Of a stretch of 64,000 nt of DNA, positions 7,022 through 47,864 are shown one piece after another. Both the position numbers and the translations under genes were made by a program. The first letter of the stretch is position 1, and each line of letters begins with the position of its first letter. Below the pieces are notes generated by a model that had not been told where the DNA came from, made no database searches, and saw only the letters and a program-made list of their open reading frames with translations. This DNA comes from Thermoplasmata archaeon (GTDB lineage: Archaea; Thermoplasmatota; Thermoplasmata; Lutacidiplasmatales; UBA184), in assembly GCA_022750115.1 (NCBI GenBank), contig JAKIWI010000001.1:83490-147489 (forward strand), read 5' to 3'.

Positions 7022-7031
7022 GGCTCGGTGC

Positions 7032-8081: not shown

Positions 8082-8165
8082 CTACTCCCAGCGACGGTCT
8101 CCGGGGTATTAATCCCCGGAGCGATTCTTGGCCCTCTCGGCTCGGGGGCGGAGGCCGATCGAACC

Positions 8166-9095: not shown

Positions 9096-9270
9096 ACGTG
9101 GCTGTCGGCGGCTTCGATAAGGGCGGCCTGGAAACGGGGCGGCACGACGCGCAGCCCGCCGAGACCGGGGCGCGAAGCGGCGCAACCCCGGCCCCCCCGA
9201 GAGGCCGGGTGCGGCCCGGCGGTCCACGGAACCTGCGGCTTCTTCTCAGATTCGGGAACGGCGAACGCCG

Positions 9271-9280
9271 CCATATATGG
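9271..9280 (+). promoter_or_regulatory. TATA-like box (CCATATATGG)
   Basis: Palindromic AT-rich decamer about 20 nt upstream of the second in-frame ATG of the next gene. The first ATG of the ORF lies inside the TATA element itself, so it is probably not the start. Confidence 0.35.
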
Positions 9281-11243: not shown

Positions 11244-11307
11244 AGGAGCCGAGCCCGCGCATCCGCCTCCTCAGGGTGGACCGGCGTGGTGACGGTGACG
11301 CCGTGAT

Positions 11308-12786
11308 ATGGACCTCCCACGTCGGACGCGGCATCCTCGCTCCATCTCGACGTCCGGCGAGCGGCCCGAGTTGGCGGACCGGGTCCTCCTGGGGAGTACG
11401 GTTGCGTTGACGGACTTGCGCGTGTGGTTCGGAGCTCGACCGGGCCGGTCGATCGCCGTCGTGCTATTCGTCGGTCTGGCGATCCGGGAAGCGTTCTCGT
11501 TCTGGACGGGACATCCGTACGACCTCGAGGTGTGGATCCGAACGGGGCACGCGGCGGCCGGCGGCGCGAGCCCGTACGCTCAGGCGTGGCCGGCGGTGCC
11601 CGGGGTCAGCTTCGGGTACACGAACCAGCCGCTGTACTCGGCAGCGTACCTCCCCTTCTGGCCGGACATCTTCGGAGGATCGTACCTGGTGTGGGAGCAC
11701 ATCGGGGGAGGCAATCGGTTCGTCCTCTACTTCCTCCTCAAGCAGGGGCCGATCGCCGGCGACCTCGCGGTCGCCGGGCTCCTCTACCGCTACGTACTCC
11801 GGGAAACGGGCGACGTTCGCGCGGCCCTCAGCGCGATGTCGTTCTGGGCATTCTTCCCCTACGACATCGCCATCACGGCGATCTGGGGGCAGCTCGATTC
11901 CGTCACCACCGTGTTGATCTTGGCCGTCCTCCTCGCGGAGGAGGCCCGCGCCGGCTGGCGGAGCATGGTCTGGGGCGTCGGGACCTTCGTGAAGTGGATC
12001 ACGGTCGTTTTCCTGCCGCTCGAGTTCTTTCGGAATCGCGGCCTCCAGCGCCTGTGGCCCTTGGTGGGACTGGGTGTCACTGGCGCGCTGACGCTCGTCG
12101 CATTCGATGTTCCTCACTGGCCGATCAGCATCCTCCTCCCATCGACGACCTCGTCGAGCGCGGGGGGAGGGGGCGGCATGAACTATGCTCAGCTCGCGAA
12201 CCTCTGGTTCCTCGCCGAACCGCTCAATGCGAACTCCGGGGTCACCTGGGTGCTGTCGCGGCTGTGGATCCCAGCGGTCGTGGCGGCGGGTTGGTATGCG
12301 GCGCGTTGGTTCCGGACTCCGGACTCGGGTCGAACACTCCGGGCGCTGTTGTTCGTCCTCACCACCCTGCTGCTGTTCCGCTGGGGGCTCTACGAACAGT
12401 ACATGCTGTACCCGTTCGCCCTGCTCGCCGCGGACGTCTACACGCTCCACCCGAAGCGGCGAGAGTTCCTCTACTTCCTCATCGTGCTCGCCACGGGGTT
12501 CTTTCTCGTCAACAATGTGCTCGGGATCTGGTTCGCGACCCCCGCGTACCCGAACGCGTTCGTGCTCGTGCAGAACTTCGACAGCTCGGCGACCTGGGGC
12601 ACGATCCGCTACGACCTTCTCGATGTGTTCGCCGTCTTGATGACGGCGACCCTGGTGCAGCTGCTCGTGGTCCTCGTGCGGGACGACCCGGCCCCGCGGC
12701 CCTGGATCTTCTGGCCCTGGCGACTCCGCCCCCGCGCGCCGGATCTCGCGACGCCGCCGAGCCCCGCCGCTTCGGGCGAGTCGTAA
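11308..12786 (+). CDS. polytopic membrane protein, GT-C-like (DUF2029 / mannosyltransferase-like) putative glycosyltransferase
   Basis: Roughly 11 predicted TM helices. Conserved periplasmic-loop region (..FWTGHPYDLEVWIRTG..) as in the DUF2029/GT87-type family. Start codon uncertain. Confidence 0.5.
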   Translation: MDLPRRTRHPRSISTSGERPELADRVLLGSTVALTDLRVWFGARPGRSIAVVLFVGLAIREAFSFWTGHPYDLEVWIRTGHAAAGGASPYAQAWPAVPGVSFGYTNQPLYSAAYLPFWPDIFGGSYLVWEHIGGGNRFVLYFLLKQGPIAGDLAVAGLLYRYVLRETGDVRAALSAMSFWAFFPYDIAITAIWGQLDSVTTVLILAVLLAEEARAGWRSMVWGVGTFVKWITVVFLPLEFFRNRGLQRLWPLVGLGVTGALTLVAFDVPHWPISILLPSTTSSSAGGGGGMNYAQLANLWFLAEPLNANSGVTWVLSRLWIPAVVAAGWYAARWFRTPDSGRTLRALLFVLTTLLLFRWGLYEQYMLYPFALLAADVYTLHPKRREFLYFLIVLATGFFLVNNVLGIWFATPAYPNAFVLVQNFDSSATWGTIRYDLLDVFAVLMTATLVQLLVVLVRDDPAPRPWIFWPWRLRPRAPDLATPPSPAASGES

Positions 12787-12789
12787 GGG

Positions 12790-13929
12790 ATGCGCGTCCT
12801 CGAGGTCACGCATCGGTATCCTCCCGCCCTCGGTGGCGTCGAGCGCCAGGTGCAGGGGCTGGCCCGGGGCCTCGTCGTCCGCGGGCATTCCGTGGAGGTG
12901 GTGACCACCGACCTCTCCCGCGACCGGCCGTTCGCCCGGCTGCCCCCCGGACCGTTCGAGGACGCAGTCCCGGTGCGCCGGCACCGGGTCGTTCGTACGC
13001 TCCCCGCGCCCCATGGCCTCGGACTCATCGCCCCGGGGATGGCAAGGGACGTGTACCGATCGTCCGCGGACGTGGTTCACGCGCACGCCTTCGGGATGGC
13101 ACCGACGTGGATGTCGGCCCTCGTGCGGCGCGTGAAGCGGACCCCGCTGGTCATCGAGACCCACTTCGACGCCGGACGTGGGACGTCCGGGTGGAGAACC
13201 TACGCCCGCGCCGTCGCGCGACTCACTCTCGCGCCGGCCGACCGAATTGTCGCGCACACGAAGATCGAGTCCGAGCTCCTCGTCTCGATCGGGGTCGATG
13301 CGGATCGCATCACCCAAATTCCGGCGGGGATCGACGTCGCGGAATTTGCGGGCCTCCCCGCCCGGACGCCCACGCAAGGTCGGCTCACCGCCCTGTTCGT
13401 GGGCCGGCTCGATCCGGAACGGAAGGGACTTGATTCAATGGTTCGCGCCCTCGCGAAGGTACCCGAGGGCCACCGACCCCGGCTCCGACTGGTCGGGGAG
13501 GATTGGGGCGGGAAGGACCCCGCCATCCGCCTCGCGGGCGAGTTGGGAGTCGGGGAGTGGGTGACGGCGACCGGACCGCTCCCCCGCGATCAGGTGGTGC
13601 GCGAGTACGGCCGCGCCGACCTGTTCGTACTTCCGTCGCTGTTCGAGTGCACCCCCGCGGTCCTGATGGAGGCGATGGCAGCGGGACTCCCGATCGTGAC
13701 GACACGGGTGGGTGGTGTCGCCGAGGTCGTCCTCGAGGGCCAGACCGCGCTGCTGTGTCCGCCCAACGACCCGGAGTCCCTCGCCGCCGCGGTGAGCCGA
13801 CTCGTCGAGGACGCGTCCCTCCGCGACCGATTTGGGCGGGCGGGGGTCGATCGGGCGCAGCTGTTCGGCTGGGACCAAGTCGTTCCCAAGTGGATCCGAC
13901 TGTTCGACGGCCTCGGCCGGGCGGGGTGA
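12790..13929 (+). CDS. glycosyltransferase family 4
   Basis: 379 aa with GT-B fold and the GT4 EX7E region (..FVLPSLFECTPAVLMEAMAAGLPIVTTRVGGVAEVV..). Confidence 0.8.
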   Translation: MRVLEVTHRYPPALGGVERQVQGLARGLVVRGHSVEVVTTDLSRDRPFARLPPGPFEDAVPVRRHRVVRTLPAPHGLGLIAPGMARDVYRSSADVVHAHAFGMAPTWMSALVRRVKRTPLVIETHFDAGRGTSGWRTYARAVARLTLAPADRIVAHTKIESELLVSIGVDADRITQIPAGIDVAEFAGLPARTPTQGRLTALFVGRLDPERKGLDSMVRALAKVPEGHRPRLRLVGEDWGGKDPAIRLAGELGVGEWVTATGPLPRDQVVREYGRADLFVLPSLFECTPAVLMEAMAAGLPIVTTRVGGVAEVVLEGQTALLCPPNDPESLAAAVSRLVEDASLRDRFGRAGVDRAQLFGWDQVVPKWIRLFDGLGRAG

Positions 13930-13986: not shown

Positions 13987-15234
13987 CTACGGCGGAGGCG
14001 GCGGTGGGGTCTTCTTCTTGGAGTCGGGCCCGCCGAACGCGGGCGGCGCCGAGGTCGGGTCGGCCGCGTGCTTGGCCGAACCGACGTCCATCCCTTCGGG
14101 GGGACCGAGCCGCGGGGGGGCCACGACGGGGCCGCCTCGCCCACTCTCGTCGATCGAGCCGCCGACCATCGCGGTGGACTCGTCGGTCTCCGCCTTGATC
14201 TCGTCTTCGATGCTCTTGATCTCGGTCAGGAGCTCCTCCTGCCGGGGGATCGGACCGAGCACGTCGTCGATCTTCCCGATGCGGCTCTCGAGCTCGTCGA
14301 GCGTGCTGAGGCTGCGGTCGGGGACGGTCCGCGACGTTCCGAGATACTCGCTCGCGCCTTCCATCAGGCGGGTGAACTCGAACGGGAACAGGATCTTGGT
14401 CGCTTGCCCGTTGCCGAGGTTCGAGACCGTGTCCAGCGAGAGGACGGTGAGGGCCTTGGCATCGAGCGTGCCGGCTCCGAGCGCGAGGATCCGCAGTCGC
14501 TGCGATTCTCCCTGGGCTTCCAGGATGGTCGCCATCCGGCCGCCCTCGGCCTCGAGGATCTTCGACTGCCGGGAGCCTTCGGCCTGCAGGATGCGAGAGC
14601 GCTTCTGCCCCTCGGCGACTAGGATCGCGGAGCGCTTCTCACCGTCCGCCCGGAGGACCGCGGCGCGCCGCTGCCGTTCCGCGGAGGTCTGCTCCTCCAT
14701 CGCGGCCTTGACCGGTCCGACGGGGTCGACCTCCTTGATCTCGACCGCCTCGACGCGGACCCCCCATCGGTCGGTCGCCTCGTCGAGGATGTCCCGGAGC
14801 CGGGTGTTGATCCGCTCGCGGTTGTAGAGCACCTCGTCGAGCTCCATGTCGCCGATGATCGACCGCAGGGTCGTCTGGGCGAGGGCGACGGTCGCGACGT
14901 GGTAGTCCTGGACCTGGAAGATCGCCTTGGGGGCGTCGACGACCTTGATGTAGATGATCGCGTCGACGTTCGTCGGCGAGTTGTCCTTCGTGATGACCTC
15001 CTGGCGGGGGACCTCGAGCACCTGCGTCCGCAGGTCGATGCGGACGACCTTGGCGAGCGGATTGAGGAACGTCAGTCCCGGGTTGATCATGCCCTTGTAG
15101 GACCCGAACAGGGTCACGACGCCCTGCTGGTAGGGATTGATCGACCAGGCGGAGCGGATCAGGAGGATGATGAAGATGAATCCGAAGACGGTGATGGCGA
15201 GGCTGATCCCGACCAGCGTTCCTGCGTCGACCAT
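13987..15234 (-). CDS. SPFH/band 7 (stomatin-like) protein with long coiled-coil and Pro-rich C-terminal tail
   Basis: N-terminal TM helix followed by an SPFH domain (..ITKDNSPTNVDAIIYIKVVDAPKAIFQV..). C-terminal extension ends KKKTPPPPPP. Confidence 0.8.
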   Translation of the reverse strand: MVDAGTLVGISLAITVFGFIFIILLIRSAWSINPYQQGVVTLFGSYKGMINPGLTFLNPLAKVVRIDLRTQVLEVPRQEVITKDNSPTNVDAIIYIKVVDAPKAIFQVQDYHVATVALAQTTLRSIIGDMELDEVLYNRERINTRLRDILDEATDRWGVRVEAVEIKEVDPVGPVKAAMEEQTSAERQRRAAVLRADGEKRSAILVAEGQKRSRILQAEGSRQSKILEAEGGRMATILEAQGESQRLRILALGAGTLDAKALTVLSLDTVSNLGNGQATKILFPFEFTRLMEGASEYLGTSRTVPDRSLSTLDELESRIGKIDDVLGPIPRQEELLTEIKSIEDEIKAETDESTAMVGGSIDESGRGGPVVAPPRLGPPEGMDVGSAKHAADPTSAPPAFGGPDSKKKTPPPPPP

Positions 15235-15270
15235 GTGATCCGTGATTCCTGTGAATGCCGTTCGGTCGAA

Positions 15271-15741
15271 CTACGATCCCGCGGCCTCGGTGAGCGGCGC
15301 GACGCGGACCGAAGTGCCTTCTCCGCCCAGCACGCGGACCTTCGTGCCCTCCGGGATGCGTTGGTCGGCCCGCGCCGACCAGATCTCCGACTGGACCCGG
15401 ACCTTGCCGCGCATGTTGTCCGGCTCGACCGCGGTCGTCACGATGCCCGTCTGGCCCTCGAGGGAGGAGGGGATGGTCGTCATCGGCCGGTGGACGGGCG
15501 CAATGTGCCGGTAGTACGGAATGGTCGCGAGGGTCGCCCCGAGGGCGACGAGGATGACGATCGCCGGCCCGAAGATCGAGTCGACCAGGAGCGGGGGGGA
15601 GACGAGGTAGACGACGCCCGCCGCGAGGAGGATCGAGCCGGGGATCAGCAGGAACGCCCCGGGGTGGATGATCTCGACGATGAAGAAGGCGGCCCCGATG
15701 AGGATCAGGGGCACGCCGACCACGAGACCTGCGTCGACCAT
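15271..15741 (-). CDS. NfeD-family short membrane protein (stomatin operon partner)
   Basis: 156 aa with 3 N-terminal TM helices and a C-terminal OB-like beta domain (..GKVRVQSEIWSARADQRIPEGTKVRVLGGEGTSVRV..). Lies immediately upstream of the stomatin gene. Confidence 0.75.
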   Translation of the reverse strand: MVDAGLVVGVPLILIGAAFFIVEIIHPGAFLLIPGSILLAAGVVYLVSPPLLVDSIFGPAIVILVALGATLATIPYYRHIAPVHRPMTTIPSSLEGQTGIVTTAVEPDNMRGKVRVQSEIWSARADQRIPEGTKVRVLGGEGTSVRVAPLTEAAGS

Positions 15742-15772
15742 CGGGAACCTCCGCCCATCACCGGCCCGCCGC

Positions 15773-15780
15773 GGATAAGG
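15773..15780 (-). promoter_or_regulatory. TATA-like box (CCTTATCC on minus strand) plus GGAGG box for the NfeD-stomatin operon
   Basis: TATA-like element about 31 nt upstream of the NfeD start, then a GGAGG box 7 nt before the ATG. Confidence 0.35.
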
Positions 15781-15801
15781 ATTGGGCCGAGCCCGCTGAG
15801 G

Positions 15802-24260: not shown

Positions 24261-24443
24261 CTACGCGGTGGAACTCTCGCCGAACGACTCCGGGTAGGTC
24301 AGGAGGTACAACGAACCCCCGATCATGACCAGGACGAGGAACAGGATCGACAGCGGGTTCGAGGCGAATTGCCAGACCGTGACCGCCAGCAGGATCGCCG
24401 GAAGCACGATGGTGAGAGCGACCGTCAGCAGCCGGCCATCCAT
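24261..24443 (-). CDS. small two-helix membrane protein (60 aa)
   Basis: Two predicted TM helices. A TATA-like GCTTAAAC lies about 26 nt upstream of its ATG on the minus strand (24469..24477). Confidence 0.4.
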   Translation of the reverse strand: MDGRLLTVALTIVLPAILLAVTVWQFASNPLSILFLVLVMIGGSLYLLTYPESFGESSTA

Positions 24444-25129: not shown

Positions 25130-26053
25130 TCAGCGAAGTTCGGGGCGGCCCGGGATCGGCACGACGACCTCGAACGTGAGCTCGACGTCGTCGGTCGCTG
25201 CCGCCAGGGGGGGGGAAGCTCTCGGGAGGGGGAGGGGAGCGGGCGGTGGCCCCGCGGGTCCGATCGACGACGGGGTCGAGTGGGCGGTCCGCGCCATCGA
25301 CTCGCCGATGTCGAGGGCCGCGATCCGCTCGGCGTCCACGAGCGCTTCGACCGGGTTGAGCATCGACTCTTCGATGTGGGTCGCGATGTGCTCGGCCCAG
25401 ATGCCCGCAACCTCGCGGAAGCGGGTCTGGCGGTCGGTCGCGAGCAGCTCCTCGTTGTCGAGGACCGTCAGTGTCGCTTGCCGACGAAGGCGCTTTTCCA
25501 CGAAGGCGTCGAGGAAATGGAGCCCGGCGATCGCGCGGTCCGCGACCGCGCGCCGTTCCGCCTCGGCGGCGAACGGCTTGATGACGAAGACGCTCAGCAC
25601 CTCGGCCGAGCGGCTCGCGGCGTCGAGCACCGGCCCGAGGATCCCGGTGCCGCTCCCGCCGCCCAGCGAGGCGACGACCGTCACGAAGGTGGCGCCCTCG
25701 AAGACCCGGTCGAGCGCAGGGCCGGCGGCGCGGGCGAGCTGCCCAGCGGCCGCGACCGAGGTCGGGATGCCGAACCCCGAGCCGTCCTCCGCTCCGAGAC
25801 AGATCCGGCGGTCGAAGTCCTCGGCCTCCGCGACCCGCGGGTCGCAGTTGATCGCGACGGTCTCGACGAAGCGAAGGTGGCGACGGGCGATCTCCCGGCC
25901 GACCCGGACGCCCCCGCCGCCGACGGCGACGAGGAGGAACCGGACGTCCTGACCTAGTCGGACGCTCGGCTCCCAGAGCCCTGCGTCGACGTCGTCCGTC
26001 CGGCGAATCGTTCGGTCTCGGTCGGTTCCCTGTTGTTCGTTGGCCTCGCGCAC
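25130..26053 (-). CDS. FtsZ/tubulin-superfamily GTPase, short non-canonical form (lacks most of the FtsZ C-terminal domain)
   Basis: N-terminal nucleotide-binding motifs are present: DVRFLLVAVGGGGVRVG (G-box 1) and VVASLGGGSGTGILGPVLD (tubulin signature GGGTGSG variant), followed by VFVIKPFAAE. It is about 307 aa from a GTG at 26053; the start is uncertain. It ends about 60 aa after the T7-loop region. Confidence 0.6.
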   Translation of the reverse strand: MREANEQQGTDRDRTIRRTDDVDAGLWEPSVRLGQDVRFLLVAVGGGGVRVGREIARRHLRFVETVAINCDPRVAEAEDFDRRICLGAEDGSGFGIPTSVAAAGQLARAAGPALDRVFEGATFVTVVASLGGGSGTGILGPVLDAASRSAEVLSVFVIKPFAAEAERRAVADRAIAGLHFLDAFVEKRLRRQATLTVLDNEELLATDRQTRFREVAGIWAEHIATHIEESMLNPVEALVDAERIAALDIGESMARTAHSTPSSIGPAGPPPAPLPLPRASPPLAAATDDVELTFEVVVPIPGRPELR

Positions 26054-26088
26054 CGCCACCACCCCCGCCGTGAATCCTGACCCCTCGG

Positions 26089-26592
26089 CTACCGGCCGAG
26101 GACCCCCTTCCGCTCGAGCTCCTGCGACGTGTCGCGGAGCTCGCGCAACCTCTCGCGGTTGGCATCGGCGCCTCGAACGGCCGTCCGCGCCCGGTCGACC
26201 AGCTCTTGGACCTTCGCCTCGAGCTCGCCGCGACGGACGAGCTCGGCGAGGACGTCCGCAAGGTCGCGGCCGTTCCCGTTCAGCTCGCCGTAGACGCGGA
26301 GCGTCTCCACCTCGTCGACCCGGAGCCGGACCGGCACCTCGATCAGTTCCCGGGTCGGACGAGGGGTGGCGCTCGCAACGGCCGTGAGGGCCCGCGCCCG
26401 GAGGAATTCCCGGAGCGCGGAGCGCATCAGATCCGACCGGCTGCGGAACTCGCCACTGGCGACAAACGAGTCGACCAGCTGAAGCTCGCGGCGGTGGCAC
26501 CTGAGCGCAATGCGCTCATCCTCGGGGCCGATCCGTGTCGTGGACGGGGCACCGGCTCCGTCCGAATCGAGTTGCGGGGGTTTGTCGAACAC
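26089..26592 (-). CDS. tandem ribbon-helix-helix (CopG/Arc/MetJ-like) DNA-binding protein
   Basis: GTG start. First RHH unit is ERIALRCHRRELQLVDSFVASGEFRSRSDLMRSALREFL. Second RHH-like unit is IEVPVRLRVDEVETLRVYGELNGNGRDLADVLAELVRRG. It sits 36 nt upstream of the FtsZ-like gene. Confidence 0.6.
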   Translation of the reverse strand: MFDKPPQLDSDGAGAPSTTRIGPEDERIALRCHRRELQLVDSFVASGEFRSRSDLMRSALREFLRARALTAVASATPRPTRELIEVPVRLRVDEVETLRVYGELNGNGRDLADVLAELVRRGELEAKVQELVDRARTAVRGADANRERLRELRDTSQELERKGVLGR

Positions 26593-26912
26593 GGCTGGCG
26601 CGAGCTATGCAAAATCATCATACTTATAGTATGGGCCGGCCGCGCGACGAGAACGGGTTCTCGCGATTCGATCGGAGCTTCCCGGCGTTGTCGAACAAAT
26701 TTTCCGGACGCTTCGCGCGCGAAAATCGTTCGCGAGCTGCGTATAACCGGCCCGTTTTTTCGCGCGCGGAGTCGGTCCCAACTGCGGCCCGGGTGCGACG
26801 CGCATCCATACGTGTGTTGGCGCCGCTAGGGTCGCTCCGACGAGCCGCGCGGAGAACGTTCAAATACGCGACCCCGCCAGTACTACGACGGGCCCCCTGC
26901 CCTGAGAGGTTT

Positions 26913-29135
26913 GTGACCGCAGTTGCTCCCCGAGGCCGCCGCATCCGATCGTCTCGATTTCGCCGCTCGGGCGCCCACCGCAACCAGCGGGGAGTGTCCG
27001 ACGTGGTCGCCACGATCCTGCTCCTCGCGCTCACGGTGACGCTGTTCGCCTCGGTGTTCTTCTTCATCAACACTTTCCCGCACCCGCCGGCACAGCCGGC
27101 CAACCAGTTCTCGGCGTCGCTCGCTTACAACGGCGCGAACATCATCTCGGTTCACGTCCTCCACCTCGCCGGCCCGACCATCGCTGGTGTCTCGACGACT
27201 CAGACCGCGATCTACCTCCAGTCCGCCGCCAAGCCGGCGTTGTTCGCCACTCCGTTCACCATCGCCCAGGGCCTGAACGGCTCGTCGGTCTGGTCGCTCG
27301 GCCAGACCTGGACCCTCAACCTGACGTCGTACGGCTTGACGGTCGGCGACAACCTGACGATCTCCATCATCACGCAGTCGCAGCTGCTGTTCCGCATCAC
27401 CCTCCCCGGCTCGAACCCGAACATGCCGCCGATCTTCTCGCAGGCGGGCATCAACCCGGCGAGCCCCGGCCCCAACCAGGCGTTCACGGTGTTCGTCGGC
27501 ATCACCGACAACAACCTCCGGTTCAGCTCGGTGTTCGTGAACCTCTCCCAGATCCCTGGAGTTGTGGGGAGCGGCCTCCACCAGATGGCCCTGCTCGCGA
27601 CGTCCGGCCTGTGGATCTACACGCTCGCCGCCGGTTCGATCTCGACCGGCACCTACTACGTGTTCGTGAACGCGACCGACAACTCGAGCCTGCACAACTC
27701 GATCGCGATCCCCGTCTTCATCTCGAACACCGGCGGCGGCTCCTCCGCGCTCCAGGTCCAGGTCGGCGCGAACAACACGGCGCCCGTCGCGGGACTGCCC
27801 GTCTTGCTCCAAGCCGAAGTCACCAACACGGGCGGCTCGGCCGCGACCGTCGTCGTTCAGTTCTACGTTGGCGGCAACACCGTCGGCGGCCCGCAATCGC
27901 AGGCGATCCTGGGCGGCGGCACCGCGCTCTACACGCAGGCGTGGACTCCGGCGGCCGTCGGAACGTCCTCGGTCCAGGCGCTTGCCACGATGACCGGCTC
28001 CTCGGCGGAGAGCGGGATCTCGATTACGGTCTTCCCGAAGATCCTGTTCATCGCCCACGCCTACCCGGCGGCCTCGTTCCCCGCGTCGAACACGAGCGCG
28101 AACATCGCCCAGATGCTCACCGCCGACGGGGTCCCGTACACCGCGATGTCCGTCGCCTGCGGTTCGACCCTCCCGGCCACGGCGACGCTGAGGTTGTACG
28201 GCGTCGTGATCATCGATTTCGGGAGCGCGACGGGCCTCGCCTGCGCCCAAGTCCCGCCCGGCGCCGCGGAACAGACGAAGATCACCGGCGCCGCCACGAC
28301 GACCAACTTCTGGTTGATCGGCTCGAACGCGTTCACCGCGACGGCGTGCACGAGCTACTCCGCGGCGTTCCAGACCCAATTCGGCCTGGCGACCTCGGGG
28401 ACTTGCACGACCTCGAAGTCGGCGAGCACGTCGCTCACCTACACCTCGTCCGCGACGTCCCCCGCGCTGCGGTCCGACGGGATCACCGCGGGGACACTCT
28501 CCCTCAACCAGACGTACGCGGCCTCGGCGGCGTTCCAGCCGTACTTCGCGCTGACCCTCCAAGCCTCCGGCCACGCCTGGCTGAAGGACTCCGGAGCGCT
28601 GACCGTAGGCGCGTACACGAACGCCTCGACCGACCATCAGCAGCTGATCCTCGCCACCGACCCGACGCTGATCGCGACCAAGACCCCGAACAACCAGGCG
28701 TGGGGTACGGGGACGGGCGCCGACGCGGCCGTGCTCTACAACGGCGTCAACTTCCTTTGCGGGCTGTCCACCACGACGAACGCCGGCCGTGGTCTCCTCG
28801 ACCAAGGCGTCGCCGGCGTCGTGACGATCGGCTTGAAGCACAACCTCCCCACGCAGTTCTACGTGGCGGTCCGGACGAATGGACCGTCGGGCGGGGGCGT
28901 CTTCGCGACCCTGTACGTCGGCGGCTCGCCGGCGTACTATCTCGGGTCCCTCGTCACGGGGCTCGGCACGCCCGGCGGCGCCGGCGCGTGGACGTGGATC
29001 GCATTCAACTGGAGCGCGCCGGCCGCGGGCAACTTCGTGCTGTCGGTGGGGATCACGACGGAGAACCCTGACTACTATGCGGCGAACAACCTGATCGCGA
29101 TCTCGTTCTACAACACCGCGACCGTGTTCACGTAG
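26913..29135 (+). CDS. large secreted pilin-like surface protein with archaeal class III (type IV prepilin-like) signal peptide
   Basis: The start upstream of the hydrophobic helix is uncertain. A GTG at 26913 would give a basic 27 aa leader (VTAVAPRGRRIRSSRFRRSGAHRNQRG) before the predicted cleavage site G|VSDVVATILLLALTVTLFASVFFFINTF. About 700 aa follow, beta-rich with dense NxS/T sequons. The upstream 125 codons of the ORF are probably non-coding. Confidence 0.55.
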   Translation: MTAVAPRGRRIRSSRFRRSGAHRNQRGVSDVVATILLLALTVTLFASVFFFINTFPHPPAQPANQFSASLAYNGANIISVHVLHLAGPTIAGVSTTQTAIYLQSAAKPALFATPFTIAQGLNGSSVWSLGQTWTLNLTSYGLTVGDNLTISIITQSQLLFRITLPGSNPNMPPIFSQAGINPASPGPNQAFTVFVGITDNNLRFSSVFVNLSQIPGVVGSGLHQMALLATSGLWIYTLAAGSISTGTYYVFVNATDNSSLHNSIAIPVFISNTGGGSSALQVQVGANNTAPVAGLPVLLQAEVTNTGGSAATVVVQFYVGGNTVGGPQSQAILGGGTALYTQAWTPAAVGTSSVQALATMTGSSAESGISITVFPKILFIAHAYPAASFPASNTSANIAQMLTADGVPYTAMSVACGSTLPATATLRLYGVVIIDFGSATGLACAQVPPGAAEQTKITGAATTTNFWLIGSNAFTATACTSYSAAFQTQFGLATSGTCTTSKSASTSLTYTSSATSPALRSDGITAGTLSLNQTYAASAAFQPYFALTLQASGHAWLKDSGALTVGAYTNASTDHQQLILATDPTLIATKTPNNQAWGTGTGADAAVLYNGVNFLCGLSTTTNAGRGLLDQGVAGVVTIGLKHNLPTQFYVAVRTNGPSGGGVFATLYVGGSPAYYLGSLVTGLGTPGGAGAWTWIAFNWSAPAAGNFVLSVGITTENPDYYAANNLIAISFYNTATVFT

Positions 29136-29219: not shown

Positions 29220-31841
29220 GTGTCGCGCCACGCCCTGGTCTTCCTCGCGGTCGTCCTCGTCGCGCTCCCGACGCTCACCACCTCCGGATGGGACCAGCGG
29301 CTCTCCGGGGCCTTCCCATCGCCTTCGGAATCGGTGGGGCATGACCGCGCGCTCTCCGCCCGACCTGCGGCTTCGAGCTCGCTCGGCGGGAACTGGTCGA
29401 CGTACCTGCAAAACCCGGGACGGACGGCCGCCAACCTCGCCGAACGCACCCTGAGCCCATCGAACGCCTCGCGGCTCGCCATCGAATGGAGGATCAAGTC
29501 GAACGGTTCGGACTTCGGCTCCCCGACGATCGTCAACGGCACCGTCTATGCCGGCTCGTGGGACGGAAGCGAGTACGCGATGAACGCGACGACCGGCCAC
29601 ATCCTCTGGAAGACGTTCCTCAGCACCGACCCGAACTGCAGCTGGGGGGACCCGATGGGCATCGACGGGAGCGCGGCGGTGTGGAACGGCACGGTGTTCG
29701 TCGGGGGCGGGAACGACTACTGGTACGCCCTCAACGCGACCAACGGCGCGGTCGATTGGAAGGTGAAGGTCACCGACACGACGTCCGCCGGTGGCGGGTT
29801 CAATTGGGCGAGCCCGCTCCTCTACCACGGTTACGAGTACATCGGCATCGCGAGCTGCATCGATAGCCCCCTCGTCCAGGGCCGCATGCTGATGGTGAAC
29901 CTCACTGGGAACCACTCGATCGTCCACCGGTTCAACTTCACGCCCGGCGGCGAGTTGGGAGCGACGATCTGGACGACACCCGCCGTGGACACGGCGACGA
30001 ACACTGTCTGGGTGGCGACGGGCAACGACGACGGAGTCCACTCGCAGCCGCTTTCCCAGTCGATCGTGGCGCTGAACGCGACCAACCTGAGCCTGTTGGG
30101 TTCTTGGATGGTTCCCGGCGTAAACGGAACGGATTCGGACTTCGGCGGCGGCGTGATCCTGTTCCACGACGCTTCCGGCCGAGAGCTCGTGGGGGCGGAG
30201 AACAAGAACGGCGTCTTCTACGCGCTCAACCGGTCGAACGTCACGTCGAACGGCTCGTGGGGACCGGTGTGGAACATCCCGACCGCGAGCGGCTTCTCTC
30301 CGGCCTCGTTCGATGGGACGACGCTCTACCTCGGCGGCGCCGGGGCCACGTTGAACGGCACGTCCTACGCGGGAACGGTCGAGGCGATCGACCCATCGGA
30401 CGGGTCGGTGAAGTGGACGCAGGGAACGGGAGGTCCGATCGACGCGGGTCTCGCGTACGCGAACGGCCTCGTCGCGGAGGGTTCAGGAGGCACCCTCGAG
30501 GTCATGAACGCCTCTTCGGGGGGGATTCTCTCCACCCTCGCGGTCCCCTCGGGCCAGTCCATCGAGGGCGCCGCGAGCATCGAGAACGGCCAGGTGTTCT
30601 TCGAGTCGGGCGATTTCTCGAGCCACGGGACGTTCCTCGCCGCGGGCATCCCGCTGGCGTCCGCGTCCCTCGTCGCCCAACCGCCGAATGGGAGCGCTCC
30701 CCTCAACATCTCCTTCGTCGGCGTCGTCGCAGGAGGGCTTCCGCCCTACAATTTCAGCTGGTCGTTCGGCGATGGCCAGACGGGATACGGGGCGGCTCCG
30801 GTCCACGCGTACCCCGCCATGGGGAGCTACAACGTCTCGGTCGTGGTACGGGATATGCGGAACGCGACCCAGACGGCGAACTCCAATGTGATCGTGACCC
30901 CCCCGCTTTCGGCGTCGTCCGCAGCAGTCCCCTCGATAGGGCCCGCACCCCTTACCGTGACGTTCACGGGGACGGCGGCGAACGGAGCCGGCGGCCCCTA
31001 CCGGTACACCTGGTCGTTCTCCGACCAGGGCGCGACGGCCACCGGGAGCGTGGTCACCCACACGTTCCACTCCGCGGGGACCTACTCCGTCGTCCTGACC
31101 GTGCACGACCTCTCGAACGGCACGATCACGAGCTCGGTCCAGGTCGTGGCGACCTCGGCGTTCCTCGCGAGCGCCCTCGCCACACCGACGACCGGCACGG
31201 TCCCCCTCCAGGTCGCTTTTCAAGCGCTCGGCAGCTTCGGCCAGGCGCCGTACCAGTTCCAGTGGGCGTTCGGAGACGGCAGCGCGAACTCCACCGGCCG
31301 GTTCGCGAACCACACCTACCTGAGCACGGGGTCGTTCAATGCCACGCTCCAGGCGAGCGATGCGCTCGGGACCGAGCACAACCTCAGCGTCCCGATCGTC
31401 GTGACCGCGGTTCCCCCGGCGCTCTTCACGTCGTACACGGAGGTGAACTCCTCGATCACCACGTGTCCGGGCCCGTCGTTCACGGTGCATCTCGTGGCGG
31501 TCTCGAGCGGCGGCACTCCGCCGTATGTCGACACCTGGACGTTCGGGGACAGCTCCCCACTCCAGCGGGGTGGGACGGCGAACCACACCTACACCAGCGC
31601 CGGCACCTTCGAGCTCACGCTGACCACGAACGACTCGGCCGGAGGCTCCACGACGGCGTCCGGCGTGGTCACGGTCCAGCTGGCGACGTGTCCGGTCGGG
31701 ACACACCCGCTCCCGCACTCCACGCCCCAGGGCGGGCTCCTCGCCTGGCAGTATGCGCTCGCGGGCGGCCTCGCCGTCGTCGTCCTCGCCGCGGCGGTCG
31801 TCGTCCTGTGGCGACGGCGCCGCGCGCCGCCGCCGAGCTAG
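29220..31841 (+). CDS. secreted PQQ-like beta-propeller protein with four PKD domains and C-terminal TM anchor
   Basis: Signal peptide present. PQQ-type repeats occur (..TIVNGTVYAGSWDGSEYAMNATTGHILWK..). Four PKD-like repeats each carry a WSFGDG/WTFGD core. C-terminal TM helix plus RRRR stop-transfer. Very dense N-glycosylation sequons. Confidence 0.7.
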   Translation: MSRHALVFLAVVLVALPTLTTSGWDQRLSGAFPSPSESVGHDRALSARPAASSSLGGNWSTYLQNPGRTAANLAERTLSPSNASRLAIEWRIKSNGSDFGSPTIVNGTVYAGSWDGSEYAMNATTGHILWKTFLSTDPNCSWGDPMGIDGSAAVWNGTVFVGGGNDYWYALNATNGAVDWKVKVTDTTSAGGGFNWASPLLYHGYEYIGIASCIDSPLVQGRMLMVNLTGNHSIVHRFNFTPGGELGATIWTTPAVDTATNTVWVATGNDDGVHSQPLSQSIVALNATNLSLLGSWMVPGVNGTDSDFGGGVILFHDASGRELVGAENKNGVFYALNRSNVTSNGSWGPVWNIPTASGFSPASFDGTTLYLGGAGATLNGTSYAGTVEAIDPSDGSVKWTQGTGGPIDAGLAYANGLVAEGSGGTLEVMNASSGGILSTLAVPSGQSIEGAASIENGQVFFESGDFSSHGTFLAAGIPLASASLVAQPPNGSAPLNISFVGVVAGGLPPYNFSWSFGDGQTGYGAAPVHAYPAMGSYNVSVVVRDMRNATQTANSNVIVTPPLSASSAAVPSIGPAPLTVTFTGTAANGAGGPYRYTWSFSDQGATATGSVVTHTFHSAGTYSVVLTVHDLSNGTITSSVQVVATSAFLASALATPTTGTVPLQVAFQALGSFGQAPYQFQWAFGDGSANSTGRFANHTYLSTGSFNATLQASDALGTEHNLSVPIVVTAVPPALFTSYTEVNSSITTCPGPSFTVHLVAVSSGGTPPYVDTWTFGDSSPLQRGGTANHTYTSAGTFELTLTTNDSAGGSTTASGVVTVQLATCPVGTHPLPHSTPQGGLLAWQYALAGGLAVVVLAAAVVVLWRRRRAPPPS

Positions 31842-31849: not shown

Positions 31850-34162
31850 CTACCGGTCCATCCGACGGACCACGACGATGGCGACCGCGATCATCGCGGC
31901 GCCCCCGAGGACCGCGAGCGCCACGACGGCCGTGTCCGCGCCGATCGAGCTCGACGAGCCGCCGTTGGTGCTCGGGTGGGTCGTCTCGTTGTTGCTCGCG
32001 GCGGCCGCACTGACGGAGACGTGGAACTGCTGGCTCACGGAGATCCCGCGGTGGTCGACGACGGTGAACGTCGCATCGTACGAACCGGCGGACGCGTAGG
32101 CGTGGGTCGCGTCGATGGTCGCCGCGGCGTGCTGGTCCCCGAAGTCCCAGACCGAGGTGTACGGAGCCTCGCCGCCATTGACGGTTCCCGAGAACGAGAC
32201 GCTCGAGTTCGCGACGGCGGTCGGCGGGGCCGTCCCGCTCGCGCTCAGGCCCGGCCCGACGGTGATGTTGACCCAGGAGGTGTGCAGGATCCCGCGCGCG
32301 TCGGTGACGGTGAAGGTCGTGGTGAGCGCGCCGGGGATCGTGAACGTGTGGTTCACGGCCGTTCCGGTCGCGGTCGACCCGTCGCCGAACGCCCACGCCG
32401 TCGTGTACGGCAGCACGCCGCCGGACATCGATGAACTGAACCAGACCTGGAGCGGGGCCGCTCCGTCGGTGGCCGACGCCACGACGCCGCTCCCCAGAGG
32501 CGCGATGACCAGAGGCTCCGCCACGATCGTGAACGTGTCGTTCCAGCTCGCCCCGGCCGAGTCCGTGACGTTCACGGTGGCGGTGAACGTTCCGGACGCC
32601 CCGTAGACGAACGACGTCGTGTCCGACGTGCTGGTGTTCGTCCCGGCGCCGGCCGACCACAGGACGTCGTAGGGCGCGCTGCCGCCCGACGCGGCGAAGG
32701 AGCATTGGACCGTGAGCGGCACGACCCCGGTCGTCGGGAACGCCTGCGCCGACGCCGTCAAGGGCGCGATCACGCGGACGAAGAACGACGTGCTGGCGGA
32801 GCTACCGTTCGCATCGTTCGCCCAGACCGTCGCCATGTAGCGTCCGGGAGTCCCGTAGAAGTTGCTGGTCGCGGGCTCGGTCGAGGAGTTGCCGTCGCCG
32901 AACTCCCACAGGTAGCTGATGGTGCCGCTTCCGCCGACCGCGGTGGCGTCAAACCCGACCCGGATCGACCCGGTGGAGTACGACGCCGTGTCGTTCGCCG
33001 TGAGGTTGACCCCCGCATACACCCAGGTGTCGGTGAGGTCGCCGAGCGCGCCAGATCCTCCCCAGAGAATGACCTGTGCGGCGGACGGGTCGTAGGCCAT
33101 CTCGCCGAAGAATCGGGGGAGCGGTGCGTCGTTCGGGTGGCTGGGGGTCCACTGGTCGCCGGAGAACAGCCAGGTGTCCCCGAACGTCTGGGCGCCGCTT
33201 CCTCCGAACAGAACCAGGGAGGAGATGGCCACGTCATAGGAGAAGCTCGCCATCGACCGAGCGCTCGGGTGAACCGATTCGGTGAGCTGGGTCCAGTTGT
33301 TGGCGTGGAACGCCCAGGTGTCGGAGTCGGTCCCGGCGGCGTAGTCGTCGCCGCCGAACAGGATGACTTGGTTGTCCGCCGCATCGTAGCGGAGCGCGAC
33401 GTTCTCCCGGGCCGACGGAGCGGAGCTGAGGCTGACCTGGGTCCAGTTCCCGCCAACGAACGTCCACGTGTCGCCAATGGCGCTCCCGGCGCAGCCACCG
33501 AAGAGGACCATCTCGTTGTCGGCCCCGTCCCAGGTCATCGCCGACGCCCAGCGGGCCGACGGATGGGTCGAGGGGGTGAGTTGCGTCCAATTGCCGTGGA
33601 GGAACGTCCAGGTGTCGCCGTAGTCGCCGCCGTTGCCCGAGCCGCCGAACAGCAGGACGTAGCCGTCGATCGGGTCCCAGGCGAGCGTGGAGTGGTCGCG
33701 AGCGGTCGGGGAGGCCTTCGGGTGGATCTGGGTCCAGCTCCCGTTCGCGTAGGTCCACGTGTCGCCGAGGTAGCCGCCTCCCGACCCGTAGCCGCCGAAC
33801 ATGAGCAGGTAGTGGTCGATGGGGTCGTAGGCGAACGAGCGGCCGTAACTTCGCGGAGCGGGGGACTTCCCCGAGGTGTTCGTCACGTTGTCCCACCCGG
33901 GAACGCCGGTGGCGGTCGCGTTTTGGCCCGGGCCGATCGCGCCCGTGGCGGAGCGGAGCGAAGCATGGGAGATCGCGGGGGACGGAGCAGCGAGGGCCGA
34001 GGCCGCCGCCAGTCGGGCGGGGGCCCCCGTCACGATGGAGTGAGCTGCCGAGTGGGGGATGGGCGCGAACGCCGAGGCCCCGAGCAGCGTGCCGAGCGCG
34101 AGGAGGACAAGAACCGAGGTCGACCAGGCAAGAGTTCGTCGGCCAAAGATCGATGTCGTCAC
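31850..34162 (-). CDS. secreted Kelch-repeat beta-propeller protein with PKD domains and C-terminal TM anchor
   Basis: Signal peptide present. Five or six Kelch-like repeats (..LFGGxGxxxxxGDTWTF..NWTQ..). Four PKD-like repeats (..WEFGDGN.., ..WAFGDGS.., ..WDFGDQ..). C-terminal TM helix. Confidence 0.7.
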   Translation of the reverse strand: MTTSIFGRRTLAWSTSVLVLLALGTLLGASAFAPIPHSAAHSIVTGAPARLAAASALAAPSPAISHASLRSATGAIGPGQNATATGVPGWDNVTNTSGKSPAPRSYGRSFAYDPIDHYLLMFGGYGSGGGYLGDTWTYANGSWTQIHPKASPTARDHSTLAWDPIDGYVLLFGGSGNGGDYGDTWTFLHGNWTQLTPSTHPSARWASAMTWDGADNEMVLFGGCAGSAIGDTWTFVGGNWTQVSLSSAPSARENVALRYDAADNQVILFGGDDYAAGTDSDTWAFHANNWTQLTESVHPSARSMASFSYDVAISSLVLFGGSGAQTFGDTWLFSGDQWTPSHPNDAPLPRFFGEMAYDPSAAQVILWGGSGALGDLTDTWVYAGVNLTANDTASYSTGSIRVGFDATAVGGSGTISYLWEFGDGNSSTEPATSNFYGTPGRYMATVWANDANGSSASTSFFVRVIAPLTASAQAFPTTGVVPLTVQCSFAASGGSAPYDVLWSAGAGTNTSTSDTTSFVYGASGTFTATVNVTDSAGASWNDTFTIVAEPLVIAPLGSGVVASATDGAAPLQVWFSSSMSGGVLPYTTAWAFGDGSTATGTAVNHTFTIPGALTTTFTVTDARGILHTSWVNITVGPGLSASGTAPPTAVANSSVSFSGTVNGGEAPYTSVWDFGDQHAAATIDATHAYASAGSYDATFTVVDHRGISVSQQFHVSVSAAAASNNETTHPSTNGGSSSSIGADTAVVALAVLGGAAMIAVAIVVVRRMDR

Positions 34163-34259: not shown

Positions 34260-35354
34260 TCAGCTCCCGCCGGACTTCAGGGGGGTGCCGGCGCCGGGGC
34301 TCAGCGGAGCTCCGCACTTCCAGCAGTTCTTCTCATCCGGGTACACGACAGCGCCGCACTTGGGACAACTCGACTCGGCCCGACGGGCCGCTCCGGTTAC
34401 GGCGGGCGAGGCGCTCGGCGGGGGAGTCCCCCCGGTCGAGCTCGGCGGGGCTCCGGTCGTCGGAGGGATCATCTCCGCGTCCGAGGCGGCCCGCTGCGCT
34501 TTGCGACGCGCTTCGCGGCTCTTCAGGAATACGTAGACGAGGAGGGCGAGGAAGAAAACGATCCCCGGATAGAACAGGATGTCGATGGCGGTCTGGGGCA
34601 GCAGGAGCTGGTACGTCGTCGCCCACGTGCCGGTGATCGGGCCCTGCACCGCCCCGTAGGCGTTCGGGACGGCGAGGAAGATCCACTGGTAGGTCGTGTT
34701 CGTCTTGTTGGCGCTCGCGTTGAACGTCGTCGCGCGCGCGAGGAGCCCCATCTGCCACCACCAGATGTTCGGGCCAGGGAGGTTCACGTGGAACGTCACG
34801 GGCGTCGGGGACGCGCTCACCGTCGTGACGTTCTGACCGACCGGGTAGAACGGGTAGCCGGAGCCGCAGAACGGAGAGGAGTTCCCCGTCGCGCCTGGGC
34901 AGGTACTGACGTAGACCCACAGTTGGTACGGCGTGTAGTTCGTCGGAAGTCGATTCGGATACAGGTCGACGGTGAACGCGAAAGCCGAGCCGCCGGCCCC
35001 GTTGTAGGGCGTGGCGGTGGCGTTGGTCAGAACCGGTGCACCGGTGGAGGTGTTGCCGTGATCCGTCGAGGAGTTCACGGCGGGGCTCGGCGTCATCGCC
35101 TCGGATGTGAGGCCGTAGTTGACGATCGGCGCCGCGAGGAGCAGCGCGGCGATACCCAGGATCGCGAGGTGCTTGGGGACCTTCCAGCCGAGGTAGATCG
35201 GAAGCCCGAGCCCGGCAAGGAGGAACGTCGGGATCGCGAAGTACGGCCCGAGGTAGAAGAACGACGCCGCGAGGGTCGCGAGGGCGATCAGGAACAGGAC
35301 GATCTTGCCGGCGCGGGTCTGCACCAGCGCCTTCAAGCTGACCGCTCGCGGCAC
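34260..35354 (-). CDS. membrane protein with extracytoplasmic sequon-rich domain and C-terminal cytoplasmic zinc ribbon
   Basis: Start reassigned to a GTG at 35354, which lies 26 nt downstream of a TATA box. Two N-terminal TM helices, an external domain, a C-terminal TM helix, then a CPKCGAVVYPDEKNCWKCGAPL zinc ribbon. Confidence 0.5.
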   Translation of the reverse strand: MPRAVSLKALVQTRAGKIVLFLIALATLAASFFYLGPYFAIPTFLLAGLGLPIYLGWKVPKHLAILGIAALLLAAPIVNYGLTSEAMTPSPAVNSSTDHGNTSTGAPVLTNATATPYNGAGGSAFAFTVDLYPNRLPTNYTPYQLWVYVSTCPGATGNSSPFCGSGYPFYPVGQNVTTVSASPTPVTFHVNLPGPNIWWWQMGLLARATTFNASANKTNTTYQWIFLAVPNAYGAVQGPITGTWATTYQLLLPQTAIDILFYPGIVFFLALLVYVFLKSREARRKAQRAASDAEMIPPTTGAPPSSTGGTPPPSASPAVTGAARRAESSCPKCGAVVYPDEKNCWKCGAPLSPGAGTPLKSGGS

Positions 35355-47650: not shown

Positions 47651-47864
47651 CTCTCGCTGAGCACCGGCGGGGCGAGAACGGGTGCGGATTCGGCGCCAAG
47701 CCGAGCGAACTGCAGGACGTGCGAGGACCAGAGGGCAGCTAGTCGACCAGCTCCGGGCGCCGAGGTTCGCCCCACGGGATCCGGTGATCGGTCCCGGAAC
47801 TCCGGCCCGGAATGCTGGGCGGCCGCCGCCCGGGGCCGGAGCGAGACCTAGATGAATCCGCGCC

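Follow-up and report, generated by a model that had tools for sequence, protein, structure and literature searches.

The 64-kb stretch of Thermoplasmata archaeon DNA analyzed here (contig JAKIWI010000001.1, forward-strand positions 83,490 to 147,489; hereafter the window, whose own numbering is used throughout) encodes a 740-aa protein in which an archaeal class III signal peptide and a pilin-type hydrophobic helix are joined to five further, predicted extracellular domains. We interpret this protein, with moderate confidence, as a modular, type IV pilin-like surface protein that serves as a minor pilin, as a tip pilin or as a pilin-anchored adhesin. The underlying identification agrees with an earlier reading of the DNA that was made without database searches (the sequence-only reading) and that had proposed a very large, ~740-aa pilin-like protein with such a signal peptide: the thresholds of the relevant hidden Markov models are passed, the processing motif is conserved and the start codon is sound.

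The class III signal peptide and its relationship to pilins

The coding sequence and the N-terminal segments of its product are as follows.

26913..29135, forward strand: coding sequence of the pilin-like protein, 740 aa, 740 codons, GTG start, TAG stop
26913..26993, forward strand: leader, residues 1-27, Arg-rich, ending in R26-G27, with the predicted prepilin-peptidase cut after G27
26994..27074, forward strand: pilin-type hydrophobic alpha-helix, residues 28-54, VSDVVATILLLALTVTLFASVFFFINT, the only membrane/assembly segment; helical at 28-54 in the AlphaFold2 (AF2) model
27075..27110, forward strand: Pro/Gln-rich linker, residues 55-66, FPHPPAQPANQF, nearly invariant

The N-terminus reads MTAVAPRGRRIRSSRFRRSGAHRNQRG up to the predicted cleavage point and VSDVVATILLLALTVTLFASVFFFINTFPHPPAQPANQF beyond it. 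The QRG processing motif singled out in the sequence-only reading is present, as NQRG followed by VSDVVATILLLALTVTLFASVFFFINTF, with R26-G27 encoded at 26988-26993 and V28 at 26994. When all six frames were scanned for a [KR][GA] pair leading into a long hydrophobic run free of charged residues, this RG/VSD site (the slash marks the predicted cut) proved to be the sole class III-like motif in the window. By Kyte-Doolittle hydropathy, the protein contains a single hydrophobic segment, at approximately residues 26-56, and no such segment beyond residue 56, that is, it lacks a C-terminal anchor. The Pilin_N family (PF07790) matches residues 26-98 with 32.8 bits (cutoff 25.2) and was also found in all 20 orthologues scanned, and residues 25-55 score 20.7, just over the cutoff of 20, with TIGR02537, the NCBIfam model of the archaellin/type IV pilin N-terminal domain. 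With these above-threshold matches, a basic leader that runs into [KR]-[GA] and a hydrophobic stretch, and a true N-terminal location (see below), the protein can be classed, by sequence, with the archaeal class III signal peptide/type IV pilin-like proteins.

The conservation pattern of this region was analyzed in 87 large homologues, namely, 43 orthologues with a called leader and 44 relatives that share the N-terminus only. The leader itself is poorly conserved (mean top-residue frequency of 0.21, with an AF2 predicted local distance difference test score, pLDDT, below 50), and among orthologues varies both in sequence and in length (6-28 aa where sensibly called). Despite this variability, position -1 is G or A in all 43 orthologues, position -2 is R in 40 of the 43, positions +1/+2 are VS, and position +3 is D or E, again in 43 of 43; the pattern R-[GA]/VS-[DE] is equally present in 44 of the 44 relatives that share the N-terminus only. 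The mean top-residue frequency reaches 0.80 in helix 28-54 and 0.82 in the linker (FPxPPxQPxNQF) compared to 0.51-0.62 in the ectodomains; a plain membrane anchor would not require such a degree of conservation in the helix. The small, ~200-aa pilins of this lineage carry leaders of 8-31 aa, so that an Arg-rich leader of 27 aa is normal for the lineage.

The relationship to pilins extends to experimentally solved structures. The profile derived from the large proteins alone matches the type IV pilus subunit of Haloferax volcanii (8FJ5) over the helix and the first strands, and the profile that includes small pilins from sister lineages adds Natrinema PilA2 (8GI2, E = 4e-9), CdiPB of C. divulgatum (8REY) and Iho670. 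The deposited 8REY chain, from which the leader has been removed, starts at VSPIIATILL, and its first V is exactly aligned with V28; by homology, this is the best support for cleavage after G27. Judged by these sequence features, the protein is most likely a substrate of prepilin peptidase. We also considered a Tat or Sec signal peptide, from the sequence alone, and rejected it: RR pairs are located ~10 residues before the 27-aa hydrophobic helix, which is not followed by an AxA-type site. The window's remaining large surface proteins combine a Sec-type N-terminus with a C-terminal transmembrane anchor, indicating that the pilin-type N-terminus is a specific feature of the protein described here.

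Reading frame and translation start

Given the G+C content of the window (~70%), spurious long open reading frames (ORFs) are common; the G+C content at third codon positions of the pilin-like frame (0.88) is like that of the real genes of the window. The mechanical ORF of this gene reaches up to 26535. A start far upstream, which would make the hydrophobic helix internal, had been named in the sequence-only reading as fatal to it, and is contradicted by a DNA alignment of five genomes, the window and four relatives with 67-70% protein identity. In this alignment, the DNA 5' of AACGTTCAAATACG is essentially unalignable, and the AACGTTCAAATACG block itself is invariant, as are TTCAAATACG at 26859-26868 (5 of 5 genomes), the GAGGT core (26906-26910) of a Shine-Dalgarno-like element and the heptanucleotide GTGACCG that begins at 26913. 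The two signals upstream of the gene are the following.

26859..26866, forward strand: TATA-box-like promoter element TTCAAATA, within the invariant block, ~47 nt 5' of the start codon
26904..26910, forward strand: Shine-Dalgarno-like GAGAGGT, 3 nt 5' of the start codon

By comparison with the archaeal TATA consensus, TTCAAATA is a putative promoter. The conservation of the promoter-like box, the Shine-Dalgarno-like element and the GTG start implies that the hydrophobic helix is truly N-terminal, and the upstream starts, at 26535 or at the ATG at 26631, were rejected because the sequence 5' of these elements diverges whereas the elements themselves are conserved. The internal start at V28, the choice of many gene callers, was rejected as well: the V28 codon is GTC, which is non-initiating, in 3 of the 5 aligned genomes, indicating that the leader is translated, and the preceding RG is conserved.

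An exact-sequence lookup found no database record of the 740-aa protein. For roughly a third of the database orthologues, the gene call begins inside the gene, at V28 or beyond it. Such calls drop the leader and often the helix as well, so that the Pilin_N annotation is lost and only a CARDB label, or none, is left. For this family, N-terminal truncation is a systematic annotation artefact in high-GC metagenome-assembled genomes (MAGs), with the practical consequence that the pilin signature is hidden from view.

Domain architecture and composition

The AlphaFold model of the ectodomain, which the sequence-only reading had proposed as a check, resolves five domains after the helix and linker, with pLDDT values of 86-93. 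The full-length AF2 model, built on a 71-sequence alignment, has a mean pLDDT of 85.8 and consists of a disordered leader, helix 28-54, a low-confidence linker, three sandwiches (66-164, 174-270 and 280-374), an alpha/beta domain (377-~620) and a final sandwich (631-739). We delineate the domains as follows.

27111..27410, forward strand: domain 1, residues 67-166, beta-sandwich with AF2 strands at 66-164; the Pilin_N match reaches residue 98
27411..27728, forward strand: domain 2, residues 167-272, Ig-like in the AF2 model; the end of the N-terminal module common to sister-lineage proteins
27729..28037, forward strand: domain 3, residues 273-375, CARDB Ig-like, with the PF07705 match at residues 280-359
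28038..28787, forward strand: domain 4, residues 376-625, alpha/beta, class I glutamine amidotransferase (GATase) fold according to AF2 and Foldseek, with no conserved catalytic nucleophile
28788..29132, forward strand: domain 5, residues 626-740, C-terminal beta-sandwich with a CARDB-like fold in the AF2 model, without a C-terminal anchor

The first strands of domain 1 fall within the Pilin_N match, so this domain corresponds to the head region of pilins. Domain 3 belongs to the CARDB family (PF07705, 25.1 bits against a cutoff of 22.7), which is matched by 16 of 20 family members, and the CARDB entries 2kl6 and 3idu of the PDB are matched by the profile; domain 5 resembles 3idu as well, with a target-normalized template modeling score (TM-score) of 0.71 in Foldseek. 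Modeled alone, the last 366 residues, that is, domains 4 and 5 (the head), form a compact unit (pLDDT 92.7, predicted TM-score 0.92). The full-length model retrieved just generic Ig-repeat proteins from the PDB, with TM-scores of ~0.13. Domain 4 contains four conserved Cys residues, 416, 444, 479 and 498, which may form disulfides. The description of the extra residues as beta-rich in the sequence-only reading thus holds for the Ig-like and beta-sandwich domains but not for the ~250 aa of the alpha/beta domain, and the extra length is ~650 aa.

The same reading also described the protein as packed with N-glycosylation sequons, which is an overstatement: there are 11 N-X-S/T sequons vs. 8.6 expected from the Asn- and Ser/Thr-rich composition, far below the enrichment in two neighboring surface proteins (32 vs. 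9.4 and 18 vs. 6.3 expected). Nevertheless, the sequons at N136, N147, N210, N253, N393 and N532 are conserved in 56-70 of the 71 orthologues, which makes glycosylation of the protein plausible, and the conserved sequons and Cys residues fit an extracellular ectodomain. The entire 740-aa sequence contains 39 charged residues, many of them Arg residues of the 27-aa leader; such a low charge would fit an exposed protein of an acidophile.

Distribution of the family

A search that covered ~5.8 billion proteins yielded ~70 full-length orthologues (35-90% identity, 690-840 aa), almost all from soil metagenomes and Thermoplasmata MAGs. The 35 loci found in GTDB species representatives come nearly all from Thermoplasmata/Thermoplasmatota, among them many AcS/SubAcS acid-soil MAGs. 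Members of the family occur in MAGs of Ca. Lutacidiplasmatales (AcS5-107, one of these MAGs, appears in the genome table of the paper describing that order); for the order, the same paper gives a G+C content of ~67-71% and a genome size of ~2-2.5 Mb. The sequence-only reading called proteins of this kind poorly characterized; the family is indeed uncharacterized but it is not unannotated, as several relatives are listed at NCBI as "type IV pilin" or, in a longer form, "type IV pilin N-terminal domain-containing protein", and some at JGI as "flagellin-like protein".

In an exhaustive phmmer search with the C-terminal 366 aa against 1.84 billion representative proteins, 24 clusters only were recovered. 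All full-length hits (542-796 aa) bear the 366-aa unit at the C-terminal end and the rest are short fragments; by sequence, the head is specific to this family. The most distant homologues, which belong to other Thermoplasmata MAGs, are 27-28% identical to the window protein over all 740 aa.

5977-11331 of locus L037: distant homologue
5989-11163 of locus L040: distant homologue
2-5425 of locus L036: distant homologue
927-4547 of locus L035: distant homologue, cut off
6467-10651 of locus L039: distant homologue, cut off

Three of these proteins are not truncated by the end of a contig; they comprise ~1725-1810 aa, with an N-terminal Pilin_N domain and ~1000 extra aa for which no Pfam match was found. 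In L037, the giant homologue lies between MutS/MutL and CTP synthase with AspRS, and no pilus machinery was found beside the most distant homologues.

Sister-lineage loci and the residue at position +3

Weaker relatives share only the N-terminal ~260-300 aa, covering 31-45% of the query. In all five sister-lineage loci that were looked up, the large relative occupies the same genomic slot, that is, these are not scattered paralogs. The large sister-lineage proteins (534-1069 aa) differ in their C-termini, which contain PKD domains, MG2/macroglobulin-like domains or no Pfam match. Immediately 5' of each large RG/VSD gene in these lineages, and co-oriented with it, are one or two genes for proteins of ~190-216 aa. 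The small genes at this position include the following.

9196-9831 of locus L005: small gene
8446-9057 and 9097-9723 of locus L006: small genes
9157-9789 of locus L007: small gene
9085-9660 of locus L044: small gene
9157-9807 of locus L043: small gene

Pilin_N is matched by 6 of 7 small upstream genes, and four aligned products start with RG/ followed by VSPIIATILLVAITV. The adjacency of small pilins to the large pilin-like gene suggests that, in the wider group, this locus is a pilin gene cluster, in which the small pilin or pilins accompany one large pilin-like protein whose stem is conserved and whose distal part can be exchanged. The two kinds of proteins are distinguished by position +3, which, in the retrieved sets, is D or E in 87 of 87 large proteins and P in 120 of 120 small pilins (the best 120 of 1251 small-pilin hits).

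Proposed function and alternative explanations

The size of the protein rules out a role as major subunit. Since sister lineages have pilin-type genes beside the large gene and the helix is strongly conserved, we favor a minor pilin, a tip pilin or a pilin-borne adhesin. Under this hypothesis, the pre-protein would insert in the membrane via its single hydrophobic helix, and a prepilin peptidase of the PibD/ArlK class would cut off the 27-aa Arg-rich leader between G27 and V28. The conserved helix 28-54 would then serve as the assembly and anchoring element, with the three Ig-like domains as a stalk that would hold the clade-specific, non-catalytic GATase-fold domain and the beta-sandwich head away from the cell. 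The protein would most likely be present at low abundance in a type IV pilus-like fiber that consists of ~200-aa pilins, as a minor pilin, a tip pilin, or a binding protein or adhesin with a pilin anchor. The sequence family, the start codon, the conserved motif, the domain layout and the association with pilin-type genes in sister lineages are established; cleavage, surface exposure, incorporation in a filament and a binding role of the head are what we infer.

Several observations weigh against this scheme. Pfam scans of essentially all plausible ORFs in the window detected no T2SSE, T2SSF or Peptidase_A24 domains, in agreement with the statement of the sequence-only reading that pilus assembly ATPase and platform genes are not in the window. 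The 44 related loci inspected contain no prepilin peptidase, assembly ATPase or platform gene, and pilus machinery is also absent among the neighbors of nine related proteins. In the window's own clade, there is no small pilin gene at the locus, only a gap of ~210-380 bp. The Lutacidiplasmatales paper, in which several of the related MAGs are described, reports that archaellum genes are lacking and leaves pili unmentioned, and its supplements yielded no pilin, peptidase or ATPase terms. In the AF2 model, the helix is not packed on the head, and the Pro-rich linker is of low confidence, which would also fit a simple tether. Finally, the gene is single-copy, in 37 of the 44 related loci it keeps its place among housekeeping genes, and the head is well conserved within the clade rather than hypervariable, features that are more like those of a core envelope component than those of a variable adhesin.

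The single-copy state and core-genome position of the gene, the conserved head and the lack of an adjacent small pilin in this clade speak for the main alternative, which we regard as possible, if doubtful, namely, that the protein is cleaved and functions independently of any pilus. Its helix would stay in the membrane as an anchor or form a short, bindosome-like stub, and the protein would be a constitutive part of an unordered exterior glycoprotein layer of an S-layer-less cell. Cultured Thermoplasmatales have an exterior protein layer ~20 nm thick in place of an S-layer, and class III signal peptides are known on non-filament binding proteins, according to a recent preprint (bioRxiv 10.64898/2026.04.22.720090). 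However, the helix sequence is conserved far beyond the needs of an anchor, one or two pilin-type genes are located directly 5' of the large gene in sister lineages, and the window's other surface proteins rely on C-terminal anchors.

We consider it unlikely that the protein is an uncleaved type II signal-anchor membrane protein in which the pilin-like N-terminus is an unprocessed relic. Such a relic would be compatible with the lack of peptidase and assembly machinery in the window and the related loci, and with the unusual length of the 27-aa leader. Nevertheless, position -1 is strictly G or A, and -2 is R, across the 87 large homologues in spite of their variable leaders, ordinary ~200-aa pilins of the lineage have equally long leaders, and the protein is homologous to pilins for which cleavage has been seen experimentally.

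The fold of the head invites two other explanations. According to Foldseek, residues 376-625 adopt the class I GATase alpha/beta fold, with PabA (8rp0, TM-score 0.66) and ADC synthase (8hx8, E = 7e-9) among the matches of the C-terminal 366 aa, so that a secreted or surface enzyme, with domain 4 as a catalytic amidotransferase or peptidase, could be envisaged. This appears highly improbable: the nucleophile elbow that follows strand 465-469 consists of G470 and then a variable position, with no Cys or Ser conserved there in the family alignments, the four conserved Cys residues are located elsewhere, and none of 20 family members matches a GATase-clan (GATase, DJ-1, Peptidase_C26/S51) or DDOST_48kD family of Pfam. 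A catalytic GATase was rejected for want of a conserved nucleophile in the alignments, and, given the variable elbow residue and the lack of GATase-clan matches, domain 4 of the model is read as a non-catalytic GATase-fold module. The least credible explanation, an archaeal counterpart of the OST48/Wbp1 subunit of oligosaccharyltransferase that would function in surface N-glycosylation, could draw on Foldseek, in which human OST48 is matched by the last 366 aa (chains 8b6l_N and 6s7t_G, identified as OST48 by sequence search; E = 3e-8 to 1e-7) and a GATase-like domain likewise precedes a beta-sandwich, and on the abundance of glycosyltransferases in the window. This homology was rejected given that hhalign profile-sequence comparison with OST48 yields a probability of 0.1%, the TM-score is only 0.34-0.37 with a root-mean-square deviation of ~20 A, the pilin-like protein, unlike OST48, lacks a C-terminal transmembrane segment, the DDOST_48kD family is not matched, and ADC synthase chains score as well or better, which reduces the match to the level of a generic fold.

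Genomic neighborhood

The neighborhood of the pilin-like gene includes a divergent gene for a ribbon-helix-helix (RHH) protein and a convergent gene for a Zn-ribbon protein.

25130..26056, reverse strand: diverged FtsZ/tubulin-family protein, ~308 aa, start approximate, PF00091; downstream of the RHH gene
26089..26592, reverse strand: RHH protein, 167 aa, RHH_8; divergent from the pilin-like gene
29220-31841, forward strand: surface protein with a PQQ beta-propeller, 4 PKD domains and a C-terminal transmembrane anchor; inserted gene
31850-34162, reverse strand: surface protein with a Kelch propeller, 4 PKD domains and a C-terminal transmembrane anchor; inserted gene
34260..35327, reverse strand: Zn-ribbon membrane glycoprotein, ~355 aa, multi-pass; convergent, and directly beside the pilin-like gene in relatives

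In 37 of the 44 related loci, tblastn revealed the same order: FEN1, PAC2, a 55-60-aa protein, the FtsZ-like protein and the adjoining RHH protein, then, divergently, the pilin-like protein, followed in convergent orientation by the Zn-ribbon protein, apgM, TYW2 and PEP synthase. The RHH protein scores 28 bits with the CdrS model NF058555, below the cutoff. The FtsZ-like protein scores 62.7 bits with TIGR00065 (cutoff 295) and matches FtsZ chains of the PDB at ~1e-12 over the N-terminal GTPase domain only. The 55-60-aa membrane protein, encoded at 24261-24443 on the reverse strand, is part of a conserved unit with these two genes, which resembles a cdrS-ftsZ2-type operon, yet its FtsZ is unusually divergent and short.

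The Zn-ribbon protein combines N-terminal transmembrane helices, a glycosylation-rich extracellular domain, a further transmembrane segment and a cytoplasmic C-terminal ribbon (CPKCG...CWKCG), and matches no Pfam family besides the ribbon. Its gene adjoins the pilin-like gene in most related loci, with two inserted genes intervening in the window; these, the PQQ/PKD and Kelch/PKD genes, are not at the corresponding position in the close relatives inspected.

Between the divergent RHH and pilin-like genes lie 320 bp (26593-26912) in which a CGCG(C/A)(G/C)(G/A)AGAACG(TTC)-like motif occurs three times, at 26643-26655, 26716-26731 and 26846-26861. The third copy abuts the TATA-like box; only the block beside the box is conserved in relatives. 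GC-rich inverted repeats are also present (e.g., 26711-26725 with 26757-26771). These motifs and repeats could be operator sites for the RHH regulator.

This arrangement prompts a more speculative proposal, to which we assign a low probability: a pilin-anchored core envelope scaffold of soil Thermoplasmata that undergoes class III processing without forming a filament, perhaps co-regulated, via the shared divergent promoter region, with the CdrS-like regulator and the FtsZ-like protein, and perhaps acting with the Zn-ribbon protein. If valid, it would tie the deposition of the surface layer to a tubulin-family cytoskeleton, in parallel to the association of CetZ genes with pili. Genes of the tubulin-family CetZ proteins recurrently adjoin pilus clusters in Thermococcales and Halobacteria, for reasons that are unexplained (PMC9856176). 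The FtsZ-like neighbor is a loose parallel to that adjacency, which the distant homologues do not support. A functional link to the FtsZ-like/RHH pair is weakened by the syntenic housekeeping nature of the region and by the different context of the most distant homologues. With collinear housekeeping DNA throughout this neighborhood, synteny alone is no proof of such a link.

Elsewhere in the window, there are two glycosyltransferase clusters (GT2, GT4 and a GT87-like membrane protein) at 7143-13929 and 47856-55517, and two methyltransferases at 57280-59100, which probably represent surface glycan or N-glycosylation pathways, relevant to the window's many glycoproteins. Sequons are moderately raised in two large reverse-strand ORFs, one of 1199 aa without a Pfam match (48919-52518) and one of 1300 aa with double zinc ribbons near the C-terminus (59144-63046); a similar, ~1350-aa Zn-ribbon protein is encoded near the locus in L007. 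Also on the reverse strand are an ordinary SPFH/Band 7 and NfeD pair (13987-15801) and a 722-aa stop-to-stop frame (4497-6665). The C-terminal ~320 aa of the latter match the Phosphoesterase (phospholipase C/acid phosphatase) family, and its first ~314 residues, which have no match, may in part be non-coding.

Comparison with known systems

In the literature searched, we found no description of this family, its architecture or the Asp/Pro dichotomy at position +3; the databases provide automatic "type IV pilin" labels. What is new is the fusion of a pilin N-terminus to a five-domain ectodomain with a lineage-specific head, which is not a categorically new arrangement. What is known of type IV filaments in archaea comes from small pilins, and large class III signal peptide proteins have been predicted but are unstudied. 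The family described here is a well-conserved example, with a settled N-terminus, a high-confidence five-domain model and a signature at position +3 that possibly marks different assembly roles. The lineage is uncultured and reportedly lacks archaella, so the family offers a tangible starting point for asking how acid-soil cells of the Lutacidiplasmatales type build or decorate their surface and attach to soil particles, and it is a good target for experiments or metaproteomics.

The head resembles the luminal domains of OST48/Wbp1 and class I GATases at the fold level only, in that a GATase-type alpha/beta domain precedes a beta-sandwich. No homology was detected by sequence, and the head has neither a catalytic triad nor a C-terminal transmembrane segment.

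In the substrate-binding proteins of the Sulfolobales bindosome and the wider set of class III signal peptide binding proteins, a large non-pilin ectodomain is likewise carried by a class III signal peptide and a pilin-like helix; they are proposed to functionalize type IV filament machineries (bioRxiv 10.64898/2026.04.22.720090). The bindosome proteins, however, contain ABC-type solute-binding domains, which the pilin-like protein lacks, and Pfam scans of the window revealed no ABC transporter or BasEF-like genes near its gene.

Large adhesin-like, PilY-like and Ig-rich proteins have been predicted in archaeal pilus loci (Makarova et al., 2016; PMC4858521), and PilY- or adhesin-like large class III signal peptide proteins appear as an acknowledged category in the same preprint (Sivabalasarma and Albers, 2026). 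These proteins are similarly big and rich in Ig folds, some have class III signal peptides, their genes adjoin those of pilins, and a role as tip adhesin or minor pilin has been proposed for them. They are, however, defined inside loci that encode the ATPase and platform proteins, whereas the gene described here is in a machinery-free housekeeping region, and the head of its product is unmatched by any sequence outside the family.

With the solved archaeal pilins of the Pilin_N/DUF1628 type (8FJ5, 8REY and 8GI2), the protein shares the basic leader running to R-G/A, the VS-x-[VI][VI]-[AG]-T/V-ILL pattern, the hydrophobic helix of ~25 aa and the first strands of the head. The solved pilins are only 135-165 aa long and have one head domain, compared to 740 aa and five extracellular domains here, and position +3 is Pro in the aligned solved pilins, as in the small pilins of the lineage, but Asp or Glu in the large homologues. 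The solved pilins form filaments; the protein described here is a predicted filament component.

In concept, the protein resembles PilB and PilC of Streptococcus sanguinis, modular type IV pilins in which a functional module is grafted onto an N-terminal pilin module within one polypeptide and which are incorporated at a low level, yielding an adhesive fiber. The streptococcal proteins are bacterial, unrelated in sequence and equipped with vWA or lectin modules; in their place, the protein of the window has three Ig-like domains and the GATase-fold/beta-sandwich head.

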